Source of the DNA: a phage
Assembly: GCA_021146965.1 (NCBI GenBank)
Contig: GCA_021146965.1_4847.1
DNA: 46,431 bases
Reading direction: 5' to 3' (one strand)
Shown here: positions 3,142-46,431 of the stretch, piece after piece
Numbering within the stretch: the first letter of the stretch is position 1
Layout: each line of letters begins with the position of its first letter
Position numbers and translations under genes: made by a program
The notes under the pieces: generated by a model
Seen by the model: the letters and a program-made list of their open reading frames with translations, nothing else
The model's database searches: none
Told to the model about the DNA's origin: nothing

Positions 3142-3281
3142 ATCACCTTGTCCTCATCAAAAATCACGCCAATAACGCGAAGTAAGTCTTTCGCCATGCG
3201 TTCCGCTTCCTCGTAGTCGTAACCTGCATCAACATACAAATCAGTGTAGAAAATCAGGTCAGCTTTTGTTTGTTCGTTCAT
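3138..3281 (-). CDS. small hypothetical protein (47 aa incl. stop)
   Basis: ORF MNEQTKADLIFYTDLYVDAGYDYEEAERMAKDLLRVIGVIFDEDKVI linking two flanking genes by ATGA overlaps at both ends; below ORF-track size cut-off. Confidence 0.4.
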   Translation of the reverse strand: MNEQTKADLIFYTDLYVDAGYDYEEAERMAKDLLRVIGVIFDEDKVI

Positions 3282-3472
3282 TTCTTGTCGCCACTGTTAA
3301 CTAATGCCCAAACAAGTGCCGCAACCCATCCAATAAAGCTCCACCCGACAAGAATATTCAGTACACAGATTGCTGTCGTGTTTGTGTGCTTGCGTTGCAA
3401 AGCCACAAATGATGGAAGAAGATAAACAAATATAACCAATCCAGCAAAAAGCAACAAAATAACAACATCCAT
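3278..3472 (-). CDS. superinfection-immunity-like small membrane protein
   Basis: 64-aa ORF with two hydrophobic helices; motif YLLPSFVALQRKHTNTTAICVLNILVGWSFIGWVAALVWAL resembles the Imm_superinfect family signature (LP..IA..R.H.N..aI...N...GWt.iGWv.AL.WA) from memory. Confidence 0.5.
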   Translation of the reverse strand: MDVVILLLFAGLVIFVYLLPSFVALQRKHTNTTAICVLNILVGWSFIGWVAALVWALVNSGDKK

Positions 3473-28568: not shown

Positions 28569-30915
<2,347 letters not shown>

Positions 30916-30998
30916 GGGCTTGGTTTTGTCTTGTGAGCATACACAGAACAAATATTATTATCGCATAGCACAATATCTCTACGATGCTGAATATTGTT

Positions 30999-32267: not shown

Positions 32268-32353
32268 CACTTGATGTAGATACTATGCACCACCAACCAA
32301 TCTACGTCAACACCATTGTGATAGAATTAATCATTATTTGAACTGGAGGCAGA
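32268..32353. promoter_or_regulatory. divergent promoter/operator region with inverted motif pair
   Basis: TTGATGTAGAT (32271-32281) and inverted CAATCTACGTCAACA (32298-32312) between divergent operons; GGAGG RBS at 32345-32349. Confidence 0.45.
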
Positions 32354-32632
32354 ATGAAACTATCGCAACGAGGCGTGGAGACGTTTGGAATTACCGATGC
32401 CGTGAATATATCGCCTTACATCACTACCGAGACAACGCAGAATCAGTTCGACGCGCTGGCAAGTCTTGCCACCGACATTGGCATTTACGCGTTCCGTAAA
32501 TCAACGCTTCTGAAGAAGCACAACCTCCGCTGCTTCTCATGTGCTGTTGCGCATTTCATCGCGTGGGGCGAGAAGACTGGCGACAAAGCAAAACGCAAAG
32601 CTGAAAAAGAGGTTTACTGGTATGGCTATTAG
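32354..32632 (+). CDS. GH24 (P22 gp19-type) lysozyme-like protein lacking the catalytic N-terminal core (probable gene remnant)
   Basis: 92 aa; C-terminal part TTQNQFDALASLATDIGIYAFRKSTLLKKHNL matches the conserved Q.Q.DAL.SL..N.G..AF..ST.L..LN segment of P22-type lysozymes, but the E/D/T catalytic region and ~55 aa are absent; 3' end overlaps endolysin start. Confidence 0.5.
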   Translation: MKLSQRGVETFGITDAVNISPYITTETTQNQFDALASLATDIGIYAFRKSTLLKKHNLRCFSCAVAHFIAWGEKTGDKAKRKAEKEVYWYGY

Positions 32633-33086
32633 TAAAAACATGAAGGCGTTTCTGGATATGCTGGCGTACAGCGAGGGCACTGATAACGGGCGGCAGAAAA
32701 CCAATAATCATGGTTATGATGTGATTGTTGGCGGCTCACTGTTTACCGACTATTCCGACCACCCGCGCAAGCTGATTAGCCTGCCAAGGCTGGGCATTAA
32801 ATCCACCGCCGCCGGTCGCTATCAGGTACTGGCTAAGTTTTATGATGCGTACAAAAAGCAATTGCGTTTACCGGACTTCTCCCCCGCATCGCAGGACGCC
32901 ATTGCAATGCAGCTAATCCGTGAATGCAAGGCCACCGCTGATATTGAGGCTGGTCGCATTGCTGATGCCATCCATAAATGCCGCTCCCGCTGGGCCTCAT
33001 TGCCGGGCGCTGGGTATGGTCAGCATGAGCAGAAGCTGGATAAGCTGATTCAGGTATACAAAGAGGCTGGCGGAGCTGTGGCATGA
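32622..33086 (+). CDS. endolysin, lambda R-type lytic transglycosylase
   Basis: KAFLDMLAYSEGTDNGRQKTNNHGYDVIVGG.LFTDYSDHPRK...AGRYQ...WASLPGAGYGQ.E.K...L...YKEAGG aligns along its length with lambda R as recalled. Confidence 0.85.
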   Translation: MAISKNMKAFLDMLAYSEGTDNGRQKTNNHGYDVIVGGSLFTDYSDHPRKLISLPRLGIKSTAAGRYQVLAKFYDAYKKQLRLPDFSPASQDAIAMQLIRECKATADIEAGRIADAIHKCRSRWASLPGAGYGQHEQKLDKLIQVYKEAGGAVA

Positions 33087-33322
33087 AAAAGCTAAGCAAC
33101 TGGCTGCTCGCCGCGTGGATTTCATTCTGCTCGCTGTTACAACTATGGCCTGATGCAATGATACATGTGTGGGTAATGATGCCGGATGACCTGAAAGCAG
33201 CGCTACCGCTAATCGTGGTCAAAGGTGTGAGTTACTCAATTATGCTTGTCGGCATCCTCGGCAAAATGCACGGCATGAGGAAGGAAAACCGGAGGCTGCG
33301 CAATGATGTCGATTCTCGTTAA
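33083..33322 (+). CDS. putative holin (two-TMD small membrane protein)
   Basis: 79 aa, two hydrophobic helices and charged C-terminus (RKENRRLRNDVDSR); ATGA-coupled to endolysin; unusual position downstream of endolysin. Confidence 0.4.
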   Translation: MKKLSNWLLAAWISFCSLLQLWPDAMIHVWVMMPDDLKAALPLIVVKGVSYSIMLVGILGKMHGMRKENRRLRNDVDSR

Positions 33323-33794
33323 ATACTGGCGACCGCTGGCAATTATTATAATTGTTGCCGCTGGCGCGTTGTGGGTGGCAAATAAAGTGTCCGGTTATGG
33401 CGAGCAACAATATGCCGCCGGATACGCGAAGGCAGTCGCAGAACAGAAGGCCGCAGACGAACAAGAGGAGCAACGACGCAATGCAGAACTGCAAAAGATT
33501 CAGGCCGACGCACAGCAAAGGATTGATGCTGCGCGCAATGATGCTGTTAATGCTGCCGCTAAGTCTGGCAGGTTGCAGCAACAACTCACCAGTATCCGCA
33601 AGCAGCTCGTCGGATATTCCACCGCTGAGTCCATTGGCAACCCAGCCGCAGAAACCGGAGTTTTGCTTGCAGACGTGCTCCGCAAATCTGTCGAAAGAAA
33701 TCAACAGCTGGCAGATTACGCTGACAGGGGGAGAGAGGCAGGATTGACGTGTGAGGCACAGTATAATTCTCTGCGTAATAAAAAAGCCCCGTGA
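33303..33794 (+). CDS. Rz-like inner-membrane spanin (i-spanin)
   Basis: N-terminal TM helix (WRPLAIIIIVAAGALWVA) followed by coiled-coil periplasmic domain; contains embedded +1-frame lipoprotein ORF. Confidence 0.7.
   Translation: MMSILVKYWRPLAIIIIVAAGALWVANKVSGYGEQQYAAGYAKAVAEQKAADEQEEQRRNAELQKIQADAQQRIDAARNDAVNAAAKSGRLQQQLTSIRKQLVGYSTAESIGNPAAETGVLLADVLRKSVERNQQLADYADRGREAGLTCEAQYNSLRNKKAP
33526..33747 (+). CDS. Rz1-like outer-membrane lipoprotein spanin (o-spanin), embedded in Rz
   Basis: MLRAMMLLMLPLSLAGC lipobox signal peptide, Pro-rich mature region, entirely inside Rz in another frame (lambda-type embedded architecture). Confidence 0.65.
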   Translation: MLRAMMLLMLPLSLAGCSNNSPVSASSSSDIPPLSPLATQPQKPEFCLQTCSANLSKEINSWQITLTGGERQD

Positions 33795-33808
33795 TGGGGC
33801 TTTGTTTT
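33783..33808. terminator. bidirectional rho-independent terminator
   Basis: AAGCCCC-gtgat-GGGGCTTTGTTTT hairpin between convergent Rz (+) and 33829..34206 (-). Confidence 0.65.
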
Positions 33809-33828
33809 AACCTTCTCCGTAGCCAATG

Positions 33829-34206
33829 TCACGCATAAAGCGCCTCCATCTTGTACCCAAACATAATTGCATTCTGATGCTCAGTGCTACCAGAAAACAC
33901 CAGATAGCGTTTACCTCGATTATCCGTAACGATGTAGGCAGCTGGTGAGTTTTCCTTCCTAAATCTGGCTTCGTCATCACTCCCTTCATACATCCTCCCA
34001 CTCGCTGGCAGATACAAATCGAATGTTTGAATTTCCGTTCCGCTGCATTCATTGCTACGTTCATTGAACAGGATAGCCAATCTTGGGTTGCCATTGGAAT
34101 GCTTTGCAGGGAATGCGATTCTCCAGCCATCGTACATATACTGACTTGGGTAGGATAGCCATGACTTACCGCGCCTACCCTCCGTAAGAATCGGCTTACT
34201 CGCCAT
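33829..34206 (-). CDS. hypothetical protein
   Basis: start at ATG 34206 with GGAGGA RBS (track ORF extends to 34254). Confidence 0.45.
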   Translation of the reverse strand: MASKPILTEGRRGKSWLSYPSQYMYDGWRIAFPAKHSNGNPRLAILFNERSNECSGTEIQTFDLYLPASGRMYEGSDDEARFRKENSPAAYIVTDNRGKRYLVFSGSTEHQNAIMFGYKMEALYA

Positions 34207-34471: not shown

Positions 34472-34773
34472 TATTTAATCTCTCCGTTCAGTTCATTAAC
34501 AATTAACGTTGCATAGCCAGCAATATCTTTCCAGCTGTCATCATAAGTCGGGTCGCCATTCAGAATGCGCCCAATCTTGTGCTGAATCATGTCGAGCGCC
34601 TCGCGTTGACTTGGTGTGAGATTGCGCCAGCCATCTACCTTGCGCATCACATCTTTCAACTCCTGCATAATTTCAGCGCCGTCTTTGAATTTACCGTATC
34701 GACTACCGCGTTCGGTGATGAGTCGCTCTGTTGCGTCAGTATGGCGCTTATCGCCCGTGATTTGTGAACTCAT
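34471..34773 (-). CDS. hypothetical protein
   Basis: 100-aa ORF, ATG start. Confidence 0.45.
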   Translation of the reverse strand: MSSQITGDKRHTDATERLITERGSRYGKFKDGAEIMQELKDVMRKVDGWRNLTPSQREALDMIQHKIGRILNGDPTYDDSWKDIAGYATLIVNELNGEIK

Positions 34774-35260
34774 TGTGATGCATTCTCCTGAATTCTTTTA
34801 TTTTTGCTTCTGCTTCTCTTATGTCGGAAAAGTAACCAACTGTGAATCTTTTGCCATTTACTCCAACTCTTGCATGCCACTTGTTGTGCGATGAACTCCA
34901 GTTAACCCCCTTGATACCGCTAGTGTTGTTTTTGTTCATTGCTTTGTTGTGGCTATTCTCAAATTTGCTGGCCTCCCTTAAATTGCACGCCCTGTTGTCA
35001 TTGCGAATGCCATTAATGTGGTCAATCATTTCACTTGCTGGCGCGCCATGAATGCATATCCATGCCAATCTGTGAGCAAGAAAAGCCCTACCGCAAAGAA
35101 TTATTTGCACATATCCATCTGGCTTTAAGTAGCCAGCCACACTCCCTTTTTCTGCAATCCTATTCCTTGTCTTTAGCCATTTAAATTCCCCAGTTAGTGG
35201 ATTGTAGTAAAGGTAACTCAATATAAACTCCCTACTCGGCTCATCTCTCCTATGCCTCAT
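34748..35260 (-). CDS. HNH homing endonuclease with AP2 domain (paralog 3 of 4)
   Basis: IDHINGIRNDNRACNLREA plus AP2-like SGIKGVNWSSSHNKWHARVGVNGKRFTVGYF. Confidence 0.8.
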   Translation of the reverse strand: MRHRRDEPSREFILSYLYYNPLTGEFKWLKTRNRIAEKGSVAGYLKPDGYVQIILCGRAFLAHRLAWICIHGAPASEMIDHINGIRNDNRACNLREASKFENSHNKAMNKNNTSGIKGVNWSSSHNKWHARVGVNGKRFTVGYFSDIREAEAKIKEFRRMHHNEFTNHGR

Positions 35261-35820: not shown

Positions 35821-36015
35821 ATGGCGCATGACGAACTGTACGAAGAATCGTTAATCCAGAGGTTGAATGAAGTTGAGCGCACTCGCGAATGGCTGGAGTG
35901 CGAGTTACGAGAAGTGCGCAACCGCCTGCAACGCAAGCGCAGTCAGCAAAGAGATGTCATCGACTGGTCTGGGGGTACACCTAAATTTAACAATCTGGGA
36001 GAATGGTTGAAATGA
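35821..36015 (+). CDS. hypothetical coiled-coil protein
   Basis: 64-aa ORF. Confidence 0.4.
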   Translation: MAHDELYEESLIQRLNEVERTREWLECELREVRNRLQRKRSQQRDVIDWSGGTPKFNNLGEWLK

Positions 36016-36542
36016 GCAACATTAGTAAGGAAAGCATTTTAAAGTTCCTCCAGCATGATGAAAATACAGGAAACTTTCTATGGATTGATAATTTCTCAAG
36101 AAAATCAAAGAAAGGGAAGGTGGCTGGAGGTATTACATCGCATGGGTATTGGAGAATTCAACTCCCCATCGGGAGGTTTTACGCACACAGAATGGCGTGG
36201 ATTGTTTGCAATGGAGATATACCAAACGGATATGAGATTGATCACATAAATGGGAACAAGAAAGATAATCGCATCAGCAACCTAAGATTGGTCACAAGAG
36301 GTCAAAATGTTATGAATGTAGGCGTGAAAAACAATAATACAAGCGGAGTTAAGGATGTTGTTTGGGACTCTTCGCGAGAAAGGTGGAGGGTTCAAATTAC
36401 AGCCAATGGCAAGCATTATTATGGAGGTAGATTCTCGTCAATAACACAAGCAAAAGAGGAGAGGAACAGGCTCATAAAGATGGTTCACGGGAAATTTTTG
36501 AATACAAAAGGTGAGCAATATGACACTACTAATGAACGATGA
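36012..36542 (+). CDS. HNH homing endonuclease with AP2 domain (paralog 4 of 4)
   Basis: IDHINGNKKDNRISNLRLV plus AP2-like SGVKDVVWDSSRERWRVQITANGKHYYGGRF; ATG 36012 with GGGAGA RBS. Confidence 0.8.
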   Translation: MSNISKESILKFLQHDENTGNFLWIDNFSRKSKKGKVAGGITSHGYWRIQLPIGRFYAHRMAWIVCNGDIPNGYEIDHINGNKKDNRISNLRLVTRGQNVMNVGVKNNNTSGVKDVVWDSSRERWRVQITANGKHYYGGRFSSITQAKEERNRLIKMVHGKFLNTKGEQYDTTNER

Positions 36543-38364: not shown

Positions 38365-38558
38365 CTCCGTATATCTTTTGTTCATCATGGGCTGCTATCA
38401 TTTAATCAGGAAGTAGCCCATGAACATAATCCCTATCACTTACTTTCTCACGCTATACGCACTCACCAATTCGCCATTGTTTGCACTGGCTACCGCCTCG
38501 TGGTGCTATATCTCCCTGTGTTATAATTCGACCACAAACTAACCGTGGAGAGTTAACC

Positions 38559-45585: not shown

Positions 45586-45705
45586 ATGGGTTCAACCAAC
45601 TCACCATCTCGTTCGCGCGCTACTGGCAACACAAAAACTGGCGGCAAAACTGGCGTGGTGAAGCCAAACGGCTCTACCCGTTCACCATCGCGCGGTAAAA
45701 AATAA
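45586..45705 (+). CDS. small basic Ser/Thr/Gly-rich protein (39 aa)
   Basis: ORF MGSTNSPSRSRATGNTKTGGKTGVVKPNGSTRSPSRGKK with AGGAGA RBS; TAATG-coupled to next gene. Confidence 0.35.
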   Translation: MGSTNSPSRSRATGNTKTGGKTGVVKPNGSTRSPSRGKK

Positions 45706-46142
45706 TGTTCGGCGCAGATGTTGCCATCATGATCATGTATGTGCTTGGATTTGCCTGCACGGGCATGGTTGCGTTTCTGGTGTTCATTCCGGCAATGGTG
45801 ATGTCTGTGTATCTTGGATGGGTGCTTGTTGATTCATTTCCCGCCGAATATCTGTATTACCTTGCGCAGTGTATGGTCTGGTTGTTTCCGGCTATTGCGC
45901 TGCGTAAAAGTACAAAGATGGCGCTCTGCGTGCTGACGATGAGCCTTTACGAATGGCTGGTTGCGATAGAGTCATTCGTATGGGAATTTATCACGCCTGT
46001 AGCAACGCCGCTTCATGCGCAGTACGCATTTATTATCGGCATCCATCTGTTCATCCTTTTCATCACTTTTAAATGGGGCGGCGAAATTGGACATTATTCT
46101 TGGCGTGGTTGCCATCGTTTTTTCGCTGATTCAAATCTATAA
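45705..46142 (+). CDS. polytopic membrane protein
   Basis: 145-aa ORF with at least four hydrophobic helices; C-terminal end uncertain because an overlapping frame encodes a TM-plus-basic-tail peptide. Confidence 0.45.
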   Translation: MFGADVAIMIMYVLGFACTGMVAFLVFIPAMVMSVYLGWVLVDSFPAEYLYYLAQCMVWLFPAIALRKSTKMALCVLTMSLYEWLVAIESFVWEFITPVATPLHAQYAFIIGIHLFILFITFKWGGEIGHYSWRGCHRFFADSNL

Positions 46143-46174: not shown

Positions 46175-46431
46175 ATGAACGAAACACTAAGACAGGCCGC
46201 AGAGCAAGTTATAAGCGGGACGACGGGGCAGGTGATTGACAAGGCTGGATATGCCTCCATTGGTACTGGTATTGGACTGAAAGTTGCAGAGCAAACGCCT
46301 GTCACGCAGTCTTATTTTGAGGCTATGATTCCACACAGTCTGACAGAGTTGGCGGCAGTAGCGTCAATCCTCGGCGCCCTGTCTCTGGTAATAAAGAACC
46401 TCTTTGAAATGTGGTGGAAGGTACGGGAGTC
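46175..46431 (+). CDS. holin-like small membrane protein (3' end beyond window)
   Basis: hydrophilic N-terminus, Gly-rich ASIGTGIG segment, TM helix LAAVASILGALSLVI followed by KNLFEMWWKVRE; architecture recalls small phage holins; open to window end. Confidence 0.3.
   Translation, partial: MNETLRQAAEQVISGTTGQVIDKAGYASIGTGIGLKVAEQTPVTQSYFEAMIPHSLTELAAVASILGALSLVIKNLFEMWWKVRE

Follow-up and report, generated by a model that had tools for sequence, protein, structure and literature searches.

Lysis genes of a Skate-like siphophage: a self-contained cassette with a predicted DUF7940 holin encoded downstream of the endolysin

The analyzed window, a stretch of phage DNA of 46,431 nucleotides, carries, at positions 32354-33803, the lysis genes of a Skate-like siphophage as a self-contained cassette. 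Five genes, all on the plus strand, were distinguished: (i) a lysozyme-derived gene encoding a 92-aa protein (32354-32632), (ii) a gene of a lambda-R-type endolysin (32622-33086), (iii) a gene of a 79-aa membrane protein, the predicted class II holin (33083-33322), and a spanin pair composed of (iv) Rz (33303-33794) and (v) the embedded Rz1 (33481-33747). A family match was obtained for every cassette gene (Pfam, PHROG, PDB), and dN/dS values indicated purifying selection in all four genes tested. Neighboring genes overlap by 11 nt (92-aa gene and endolysin gene), through an ATGA junction (endolysin and 79-aa protein genes) and by 20 nt (79-aa protein and Rz genes). The order given in the initial annotation of this DNA, i.e., endolysin, 79-aa membrane protein and embedded Rz/Rz1, holds in all its sequence-level statements; the gene list itself was incomplete, as the cassette begins earlier, with the 92-aa gene at 32354, which had been omitted.

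The region shares 99.6% identity with Salmonella phage ST1UNAM and about 91% with phage Skate, and the records of both list a lysozyme, a lysin/endolysin, a holin and a spanin at the matching places. The cassette is already known as the published and annotated host-lysis module of Skate-like Salmonella and E. coli phages; for Skate, the arrangement is already given in the record and in the genome announcement, which name a class II holin, an endolysin of the transglycosylase type and embedded i-/o-spanins (PMC6606912).

Upstream of the cassette lie the portal gene (28572-29984), a Mu-F-like head gene (29929-30915) and a minus-strand cluster, while downstream, small genes, two of them encoding HNH endonucleases, fill about 4.7 kb ahead of the protease, decoration and capsid genes, which start at 38481. 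This gene order bears out the earlier placement of the cassette between the minor head gene (Mu-F-like) and the protease/capsid genes. That location had been contrasted with the end of the late operon, a contrast that does not apply here: the cassette is a small unit of its own, with its own ribosome-binding sites and a probable terminator hairpin at its end, and therefore it need not sit at the end of the late operon. The first gene is preceded by a divergent intergenic region of 83 nt, in which a candidate extended -10 promoter (TGaTAGAAT; 32319-32327, plus strand) and a Shine-Dalgarno sequence (GGAGG; 32345-32349, plus strand) were read directly from the sequence. The promoter is a candidate called by eye only, since the sigma-70-like sites in the region are not above the number found in shuffled sequences (9 vs. 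7.7); a consensus promoter scan did not report the site at 32319-32327, because it is not accompanied by a good -35 hexamer. At the other end, a G+C-rich hairpin (33783-33803; 8 bp, -13.6 kcal/mol, z = -3.3 on both strands) has the stop codon of Rz in its loop, and its plus-strand tail is only GUUUU. It is likely a bidirectional terminator closing the cassette, and a terminator is annotated at the matching place in Skate.

The first gene of the cassette encodes a remnant of a GH24 (T4/P22-type) lysozyme. The 92-aa protein matches phrog_10457 and PF00959, the latter match being limited to positions 55-114, and its PDB matches cover the C-terminal half of lysozymes only. In an alignment with the complete GH24 enzymes (144-146 aa) occupying the matching position in Roufvirus phages and in Salmonella phage gmqsjt-1, it covers their residues 1-9 and 68-142; compared with these full-length relatives, about 55 residues are missing, including the N-terminal segment with the catalytic Glu/Asp/Thr. 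The gene is under purifying selection (dN/dS 0.03-0.20, p between 1e-4 and 1e-10). The remnant, instead of being a leftover in decay, may be a non-catalytic protein with its own role in lysis, e.g., in murein binding or in modulating the holin or the lambda-R-type enzyme, which we put forward tentatively, as a possibility that is rather doubtful. If true, the cassette would encode five components of lysis, one of them a dead enzyme that was co-opted.

The second gene encodes a 154-aa endolysin with an ATG start, a lytic transglycosylase of the lambda R type. Residues 3-153 match the lambda lysozyme structures 3D3D/1AM7 (E 6.5e-62), and the protein also matches phrog_90. In the structure-database alignment it is identical to lambda R in the segment SEGTDNG, which holds the catalytic Glu. 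The gene is under purifying selection (dN/dS 0.035-0.06). A hydropathy scan detected no hydrophobic segment and neither an N-terminal signal nor a SAR segment; the enzyme is soluble and, having no signal or SAR segment, requires a holin. Since one of the two lysozyme-like proteins of the cassette does not have the catalytic segment, the claim of "two active lysins" for these phages deserves caution.

The third gene is coupled to the endolysin gene, as noted in the initial annotation: its ATG shares "TG" with the endolysin TGA (GCATGAAA), and GGAG is located 7 nt upstream. The encoded 79-aa protein was assigned to the Pfam family DUF7940 (PF25612; 34.6 bits, cut-off 27), as were all of its 51 database homologs. 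In PHROG, it matches two groups named "holin": phrog_13249 (2.9e-49, residues 1-79 of 79) and phrog_1356 (3e-6). A Pfam search to E 1 revealed no match to a characterised holin family, DUF7940 being the only hit, and NCBIfam has no family for this protein, for the 94-aa protein encoded at 46175 or for a 145-aa multi-TMD neighbor. The gene is under purifying selection (dN/dS 0.08-0.19), and its product differs from the ST1UNAM counterpart at 2 residues. A word-based protein search reached close relatives only (67-92% identical), and distant homologs came from tblastn, in which 218 phage records matched; among the matches listed, those of the Skatevirus group have the homolog between the endolysin and spanin genes.

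Two hydrophobic segments were distinguished in the 79-aa protein. Residues 39-61 are clearly hydrophobic (KD19 2.0), while residues 6-22 are weaker, with marginal hydrophobicity (KD17 at most 1.35), for which reason a strict Kyte-Doolittle scan (19-residue window, threshold 1.6) misses TMD1 and yields one segment only. The net charges are +2 at the N-terminus, -2 in the loop (residues 23-42) and +4 in the basic C-terminal tail (KMHGMRKENRRLRNDVDSR), a distribution that fits a predicted N-in/C-in topology. An AlphaFold2 model (pLDDT 79.5) is a helical hairpin, with helices at residues 2-32, 35-40 and 43-78. A Foldseek search of this model against viral structures gave no match at E <0.4, which is not surprising for a fold consisting of a helical hairpin only. 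Two TMDs were also reported in the swi2 protein, based on TMHMM (data not shown by its authors; PMC8185280). Both helices contain invariant polar residues (S14, C16, S17, K47, S50, Y51 and S52). The sequence has no dual start or antiholin feature. The most conserved part of DUF7940 is the inter-helix motif PDAMxHVWxxMPxxLKAxxP and not the helices, which we count against the holin reading.

The last two genes encode a two-component spanin. Rz is an i-spanin, a type defined by an N-terminal TMD and a periplasmic coiled-coil domain; its TMD is predicted at residues 9-29, and it matches PF10721 (DUF2514; 104 bits, 1.1e-29) and phrog_312 "Rz-like spanin" (2.8e-50), and has a single Cys at residue 150. 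The o-spanin Rz1 is produced as an 88-aa precursor with the lipobox LAGC at residues 29-32, and matches phrog_11621 "Rz-like spanin" (1.1e-35); the corresponding ORF is annotated as O-spanin in Skate. In its mature form of 57 aa, the lipoprotein has Ser at +2 and contains six Pro and another two Cys residues. Both the coordinates and the frame offset of 1 confirmed the earlier observation that Rz1 lies wholly inside Rz, in the +1 frame as in lambda, with an LAGC lipobox.

Cassettes of the closest relatives, i.e., Skate (CPT_Skate_015-019), ST1UNAM, Vi II-E1, swi2 and seszw, agree with the one described here in all five genes and in their order, overlaps and genomic position; they share 91-99.6% DNA identity with it and show no difference of substance. 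The order and the location had been called atypical. This is true relative to lambda only, as both are the same in every relative inspected within the Skatevirus, Buchananvirus and Roufvirus group (six to seven phages: Skate, ST1UNAM, seszw, gmqsjt-1, Sa179lw, pIS4-A and VLCpiS13c). Endolysin, holin, spanin is the ancestral order in the Skatevirus-Roufvirus phage group. At 99% identity or more, an identical set of 70 records matches the cassette and the portal gene. The deposited genomes of seszw mutants were used to judge retention: the cassette is intact in the 36,991-bp CRISPR-reduced mutant, which lost neighboring genes. According to the CiPGr paper, 53 of the 81 seszw genes are removable.

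The Roufvirus phages (Aeromonas pIS4-A and Klebsiella VLCpiS13c) and Salmonella phage gmqsjt-1 carry an orthologous DUF7940 gene (60-95% identical), likewise ATGA-coupled behind an endolysin gene and followed by a DUF2514 spanin gene; in Roufvirus, the cassette also follows a head-morphogenesis gene and a minus-strand cluster. The difference lies in the lysin, since one full-length GH24 lysozyme replaces both the 92-aa remnant and the lambda-R-type enzyme. In most Skatevirus genomes the GH24 enzyme is reduced to the 92-aa remnant, and the lambda-R gene is placed between this remnant and the predicted holin gene.

More distant DUF7940 proteins (35-37% identity), annotated as holins, occur in Septimatrevirus (gp26 of Pseudomonas phage Kaya, and Stenotrophomonas phage QH3) and in Burkholderia phage BcepNazgul (gp39). 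They share the motif PDAMxHVWxxMPxxLK, two aligned hydrophobic segments, and endolysin and Rz-like neighbors. In contrast to the cassette described here, their genes are located upstream of the endolysin gene (the usual holin position) and encode proteins of 95-127 aa; BcepNazgul gp39 (Nazgul39) has an extra strong N-terminal TMD, and a further single-TMD protein gene precedes the DUF7940 gene in both groups. Across the Skatevirus-Roufvirus group, Septimatrevirus and Nazgulvirus, DUF7940 genes thus have an endolysin gene and a spanin gene as neighbors; the endolysins are of at least three types unrelated to each other, and two different gene orders occur.

With the lambda S-R-Rz/Rz1 cassette, that of the Skate-like phage shares a homologous endolysin, an embedded two-component spanin with Rz1 in the +1 frame and the presumed mechanism. 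Unlike in lambda, the holin gene is located after, and not before, the endolysin gene, and the predicted holin has two helices (three in lambda), is unrelated in sequence and does not have a dual start. Moreover, the cassette forms a separate unit placed between head genes, and it includes the additional lysozyme-remnant gene. PRD1 also has the endolysin gene before the holin gene; a literature search for this arrangement in PRD1 gave no hits.

The 79-aa protein is the best and the only family-supported holin candidate, and its hole formation and timing are predicted. Typical holin features are its small size, the hydrophobic segments (residues 6-22 and 39-61, predicted to span the membrane), the basic tail and the lysis genes on both sides. 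The initial annotation had found no holin upstream of the endolysin gene, and our hydropathy scans detected no other membrane protein there. A canonical holin was also looked for elsewhere: since the strict threshold misses TMD1, the genome-wide scan for membrane proteins was repeated with a less strict cut-off, using the genes annotated in ST1UNAM, and no other small membrane protein in the genome matched a holin family. The earlier designation of the 79-aa protein as the only candidate holin therefore stands in that it is the best and the sole family-supported one, while the proposal of a second holin-like ORF at 46175 does not. The latter (46175-46431 in the window) continues round the window end to encode a 94-aa protein with one C-terminal hydrophobic helix; it has no holin-family match and is a conserved single-helix protein of the head-tail operon.

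In a literature search, no paper mentioning DUF7940 was found, and hole formation was found for no DUF7940 protein. A paper on the UE-M6 holin was retrieved as well and concerns an unrelated protein. The sole published test was performed with ORF49 of swi2, whose product is 94.9% identical to the 79-aa protein: a pColdTF trigger-factor fusion produced at 16 C and taken from the soluble fraction had no lytic or antibacterial effect (PMC8185280). Since such a fusion construct cannot insert normally in the membrane, this negative result is weak and uninformative on holin function. The "holin" label of the 79-aa protein is purely a prediction.

Other roles of the 79-aa protein were weighed against this prediction. 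One is that of an antiholin or regulator, the real hole-former being encoded elsewhere, e.g., by the gene of the 94-aa protein (46175) or of a small single-TMD protein. We consider it unlikely, and less likely than the co-option of the 92-aa remnant. It would agree with the Y-K-lysA-lysB/lysC cassette of P2, in which a membrane-protein gene is also located between the endolysin and spanin genes, namely the antiholin gene lysA just downstream of endolysin K; however, P2 has a separate holin, Y, encoded upstream, whereas the cassette described here has no upstream holin (PMC9671378). It would also agree with Septimatrevirus and BcepNazgul, where the second membrane protein (one TMD and a coiled coil) is encoded directly upstream of the DUF7940 gene, so that in those phages either of the two may be the holin, and with the negative swi2 fusion test. 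However, Skatevirus and Roufvirus phages have no other membrane protein in or beside the cassette, and there is, to our knowledge, no precedent for a cassette that encodes an antiholin but no holin to go with it. As for the hole-former itself, the 94-aa protein is highly conserved among the relatives listed and is retained in the reduced seszw genomes, but its ORF overlaps the gene of a head-tail adaptor, its sole PHROG match is named "membrane protein", and it was never annotated as a holin among the matches listed (205 records match); the 145-aa multi-TMD neighbor is deleted in viable reduced phages.

The predicted two TMDs in N-in/C-in topology, with TMD1 markedly less hydrophobic than TMD2, would also suit a class II pinholin like S68 of phage 21; the weak first helix of the 79-aa protein would then exit the membrane, and its pores would be small and depolarising only. 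Pinholins work with SAR endolysins. A SAR domain was sought in the 154-aa enzyme, the 92-aa remnant and the GH24 enzymes of the relatives, and no hydrophobic segment was found; neither the lambda-R-type enzyme nor the Roufvirus and gmqsjt-1 lysozymes have one at the N-terminus. Moreover, TMD1 is rich in Leu/Trp and not in Gly/Ala/Ser, and a pinholin is very unlikely. Even closer to exclusion is a releasin-like accessory protein helping the endolysin to cross or leave the membrane without holes, as Mu gp25 does, which we regard as extremely improbable. Releasins of the DUF2730 family are likewise small membrane proteins of lysis cassettes encoded downstream of the endolysin gene, but they span the membrane once (N-out/C-in), carry an acidic cytoplasmic domain of 73 aa and act on SAR endolysins (PMC9239132), whereas the 79-aa protein matches DUF7940 only, has two predicted helices and a basic tail, and accompanies an endolysin without a SAR domain. 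A membrane protein unrelated to lysis (a superinfection exclusion protein or a moron), present in the cassette by chance, would be compatible with the absence of an experimentally determined function and with a Pfam family that is still a DUF. The translational coupling of the gene to lysis genes on both sides, its presence alongside genes of an endolysin and a spanin in three lineages distant from each other, and its retention in the examined genome-reduced phages that lost other accessory genes make such a coincidence highly improbable.

Most likely, then, the cassette encodes a canonical holin-endolysin-spanin system, in which the 79-aa protein would be the holin. The genes would be expressed from one transcript and translated with overlapping starts and stops. 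The soluble lambda-R-type transglycosylase would build up in the cytoplasm, while the DUF7940 protein would enter the inner membrane as a helical hairpin, N-in/C-in and with its basic tail in the cytoplasm, accumulate, trigger and form lesions large enough for release of the enzyme. Degradation of the murein would be followed by disruption of the outer membrane by the Rz/Rz1 complex. The gene order has little wider biological weight, being a habit of the clade and not a new mechanism. The endolysin slot ahead of the predicted holin gene was swapped in evolution while holin and spanin stayed, which is a tidy example of modular replacement.

The cassette comprises five ORFs on the plus strand: (i) a 92-aa ORF (32354-32632), preceded by GGAGG; (ii) a 154-aa endolysin ORF (ATG 32622 to 33086), overlapping the former by 11 nt; (iii) a 79-aa ORF (33083-33322), whose ATG overlaps the endolysin TGA (GCATGAAA) and which has GGAG 7 nt upstream; (iv) a 163-aa ORF (33303-33794), preceded by GGAGG and overlapping the 79-aa ORF by 20 nt; and (v) an 88-aa ORF (33481-33747), preceded by GAGGAG and located inside the 163-aa ORF in the +1 frame. 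The left flank holds the portal (PF06381) and Mu-F-like head protein (PF04233) genes, a terminator hairpin and small genes clustered on the minus strand. On the right flank, genes clustered on the minus strand, among them one for an HNH/AP2 endonuclease, are followed by a plus-strand cluster that encodes a further HNH endonuclease, and beyond these by genes annotated in relatives as encoding prohead protease, decoration protein and major capsid protein. On the basis of this ORF, frame and neighbor map, the gene order, coupling, embedding, lipobox and location described in the initial annotation are therefore all correct.

The two endonuclease genes, 34748-35260 (-) and 36003-36542 (+), are of the HNH_3 homing type (one also AP2); the region between the cassette and the protease/capsid genes is variable, and the content of the small-gene clusters around them differs among relatives. 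An 8-bp G+C-rich hairpin (33783-33803; -13.6 kcal/mol, z = -3.3), whose loop holds the last stop codon of the cassette, folds on either strand. Together with a second near-palindromic G+C-rich hairpin (30901-30921), also folding equally on both strands, it brackets the minus-strand cluster and the cassette; the two look like bidirectional terminators at which transcription converges. The 83-nt divergent intergenic region upstream of the cassette contains TGaTAGAAT, a possible extended -10 promoter; a consensus scan of the cassette region revealed no promoter above chance.

A megablast search with positions 32300-34000 matched 160 phage records, representing small siphophages of Skatevirus and its neighbors. 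Salmonella phage vB_SenS_ST1UNAM matched best (99.6% over the full length); E. coli phage ZCEC08 came next (96.9%), and Skate, Vi II-E1, SeSz-2, C1 and Bas77-79 matched at about 91%. The cassette is already known and is ordinary for its phage group, although its order and location had initially been called atypical; the underlying observation is correct and its main interpretation reasonable. In the GenBank record of Skate (Center for Phage Technology annotation) the five genes are named endolysin/glycosidase, endolysin/transglycosylase, class II holin, I-spanin and O-spanin, in agreement with the genome announcement (PMC6606912). For phage swi2, one holin, two lysins and Rz/Rz1 were described, and no lytic activity was reported for the holin (PMC8185280), which is 94.9% identical to the 79-aa protein (tblastn). 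Since that holin was tested as a trigger factor fusion, expressed at 16°C and recovered from the soluble fraction (PMC8185280), the negative result is of little weight for a membrane protein.

Over residues 3-153 the 154-aa protein aligns with lambda lysozyme (structures 3D3D and 1AM7; E 6.5e-62), and its SEGTDNG segment is identical to that of lambda lysozyme in the alignment. This segment holds the catalytic Glu. The 163-aa protein has an N-terminal TMD; it matches DUF2514 (1.1e-29) and a PHROG labeled "Rz-like spanin". A PHROG with this label is also matched by the embedded 88-aa ORF, which carries LAGC at residues 29-32, with Ser at +2, and has a 57-aa mature part with six Pro and two further Cys. 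In the Buchananvirus Escherichia phage Sa179lw an extra annotated 53-aa ORF (locus L012, 3221-3382), devoid of hydrophobic segments, lies between the holin and Rz genes.

The 79-aa protein is predicted to be the holin. It matches Pfam DUF7940 (34.6 bits; threshold 27) and the PHROG "holin" families 13249 (2.9e-49) and 1356 (3e-6). Hydropathy analysis distinguished a clear hydrophobic segment (39-61) and a weaker one (6-22), and the charge distribution (N-terminus +2, loop 23-42 -2, tail +4) would fit an N-in/C-in topology. An AlphaFold2 model (27 homologs, pLDDT 79.5) is a hairpin with helices 2-32, 35-40 and 43-78. Residues invariant among the 27 homologs (63-92% identity) include W7, W12, S14, C16, S17 and W22 in the first helix and K47, S50, Y51 and S52 in the second. 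The best-conserved part of the DUF7940 family alignment, PDAMxHVWxxMPxxLKAxxP, lies not in the helices but between the hydrophobic segments (residues 23-42; 33149-33208), and is conserved from enterobacterial to Pseudomonas and Burkholderia phages. Homologs are encoded in 218 phage records (tblastn), and among the matches listed the Skatevirus, Buchananvirus and Roufvirus records carry the gene between the endolysin and spanin genes. More distant homologs (35-37% identity) are annotated as holins in Pseudomonas phage Kaya, Stenotrophomonas phage QH3 and Burkholderia phage BcepNazgul; these phages carry the holin gene first, then an endolysin gene of another type and then Rz/Rz1. The chief reason for regarding the protein as the holin is that its family accompanies lysis genes in independent lineages, next to unrelated endolysins and in two gene orders; a functional test of any DUF7940 protein was not found in the literature.

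The position of the gene, resembling that of P2 LysA, could also indicate an antiholin, but the cassette would then be left without a holin. A pinholin would depend on a SAR endolysin, and the cassette has none; the hydropathy scan detected no hydrophobic segment in the 154-aa endolysin. The same requirement applies to Mu-type releasins, which moreover belong to DUF2730 and have one helix. Septimatrevirus and BcepNazgul loci encode, directly upstream of the DUF7940 "holin", a protein of 104-146 aa with a single TMD and a coiled-coil region (L008 386-724, L009 2106-2420, L007 1935-2375); this is possibly a further membrane protein for lysis, one that has no counterpart in the Skatevirus cassette.

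Small membrane proteins were also searched for among all ORFs of the window and, with laxer settings, among the annotated genes of ST1UNAM; few were detected, and apart from the 79-aa protein none had a holin-family match. Besides several single-helix peptides (31-72 aa), the scan yielded a 64-aa, two-helix Imm-type superinfection immunity protein (3278-3472, -; PF14373), similar to a class II holin in size and architecture but of a different family, and encoded downstream of the gene annotated in relatives as major tail protein, within a minus-strand island. A 145-aa protein with about four hydrophobic helices (45705-46142, +; phrog_14688, labeled "lipoprotein") is encoded just upstream of a 94-aa ORF, and its homolog is deleted in the viable genome-reduced phage seszw_300S. 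The 94-aa ORF (46175-46431, +), proposed in the initial annotation as a second holin-like ORF, runs off the end of the window and resumes at positions 1-28, and the window therefore appears to be a circularly permuted whole genome. It overlaps the head-tail adaptor gene, and its product is 95-99% conserved in most relatives and present in 205 records, those listed all being from the same phage group. The holin proposal is not upheld: the protein has a single, C-terminal hydrophobic helix and no holin-family match, and none of the matches listed is annotated as a holin.

CRISPR-based reduction of Skatevirus seszw showed 53 of its 81 genes to be removable (PMC9825161). The 36,991-bp mutant seszw_300S lost four cassette-adjacent genes and kept all four annotated cassette genes. 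Searches with the cassette and with the portal gene each gave 70 records of at least 99% identity, so the cassette appears to be present in all deposited seszw genomes. Comparison of the window, Skate, seszw and Sa179lw in pairs gave a dN/dS of 0.035-0.06 for the endolysin gene, 0.08-0.19 for the 79-aa gene, 0.03-0.20 for the 92-aa gene and 0.13-0.41 for Rz, which carries the embedded second frame.

The 92-aa gene, absent from the initial annotation, encodes a lysozyme remnant. Its product aligns with positions 55-114 alone of a 125-position phage lysozyme profile, and with solved lysozymes in their C-terminal half only. At the same place, Roufvirus phages (loci L010 and L011) and Salmonella phage gmqsjt-1 (L015, 2064-3203) encode a full GH24 lysozyme (144-146 aa) whose gene is ATGA-coupled to that of the same holin (up to 95% identical); the lambda-R-type gene and the remnant are both absent there. 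The 92-aa protein aligns to the first 9 and last ~75 residues of these enzymes and lacks the stretch that carries the catalytic Glu, Asp and Thr. The published claim of an active second lysin rests on a trigger factor fusion of swi2 "lysin2" with an effect of about one log (PMC8185280). The remnant measures 92 aa in each of the four genomes compared; its gene persists in CRISPR-reduced seszw genomes and shows non-synonymous changes far below expectation (Fisher p between 1e-4 and 1e-10); by these comparisons the remnant is under purifying selection, though catalytically truncated. In the simplest history, the ancestral order would have been endolysin, holin, spanin; a lambda-R-type gene would have been inserted downstream of the original GH24 gene, ahead of the holin gene, and the GH24 gene would have been shortened yet retained. 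The endolysin slot has undergone exchange, whereas the holin and spanin genes have remained in place.
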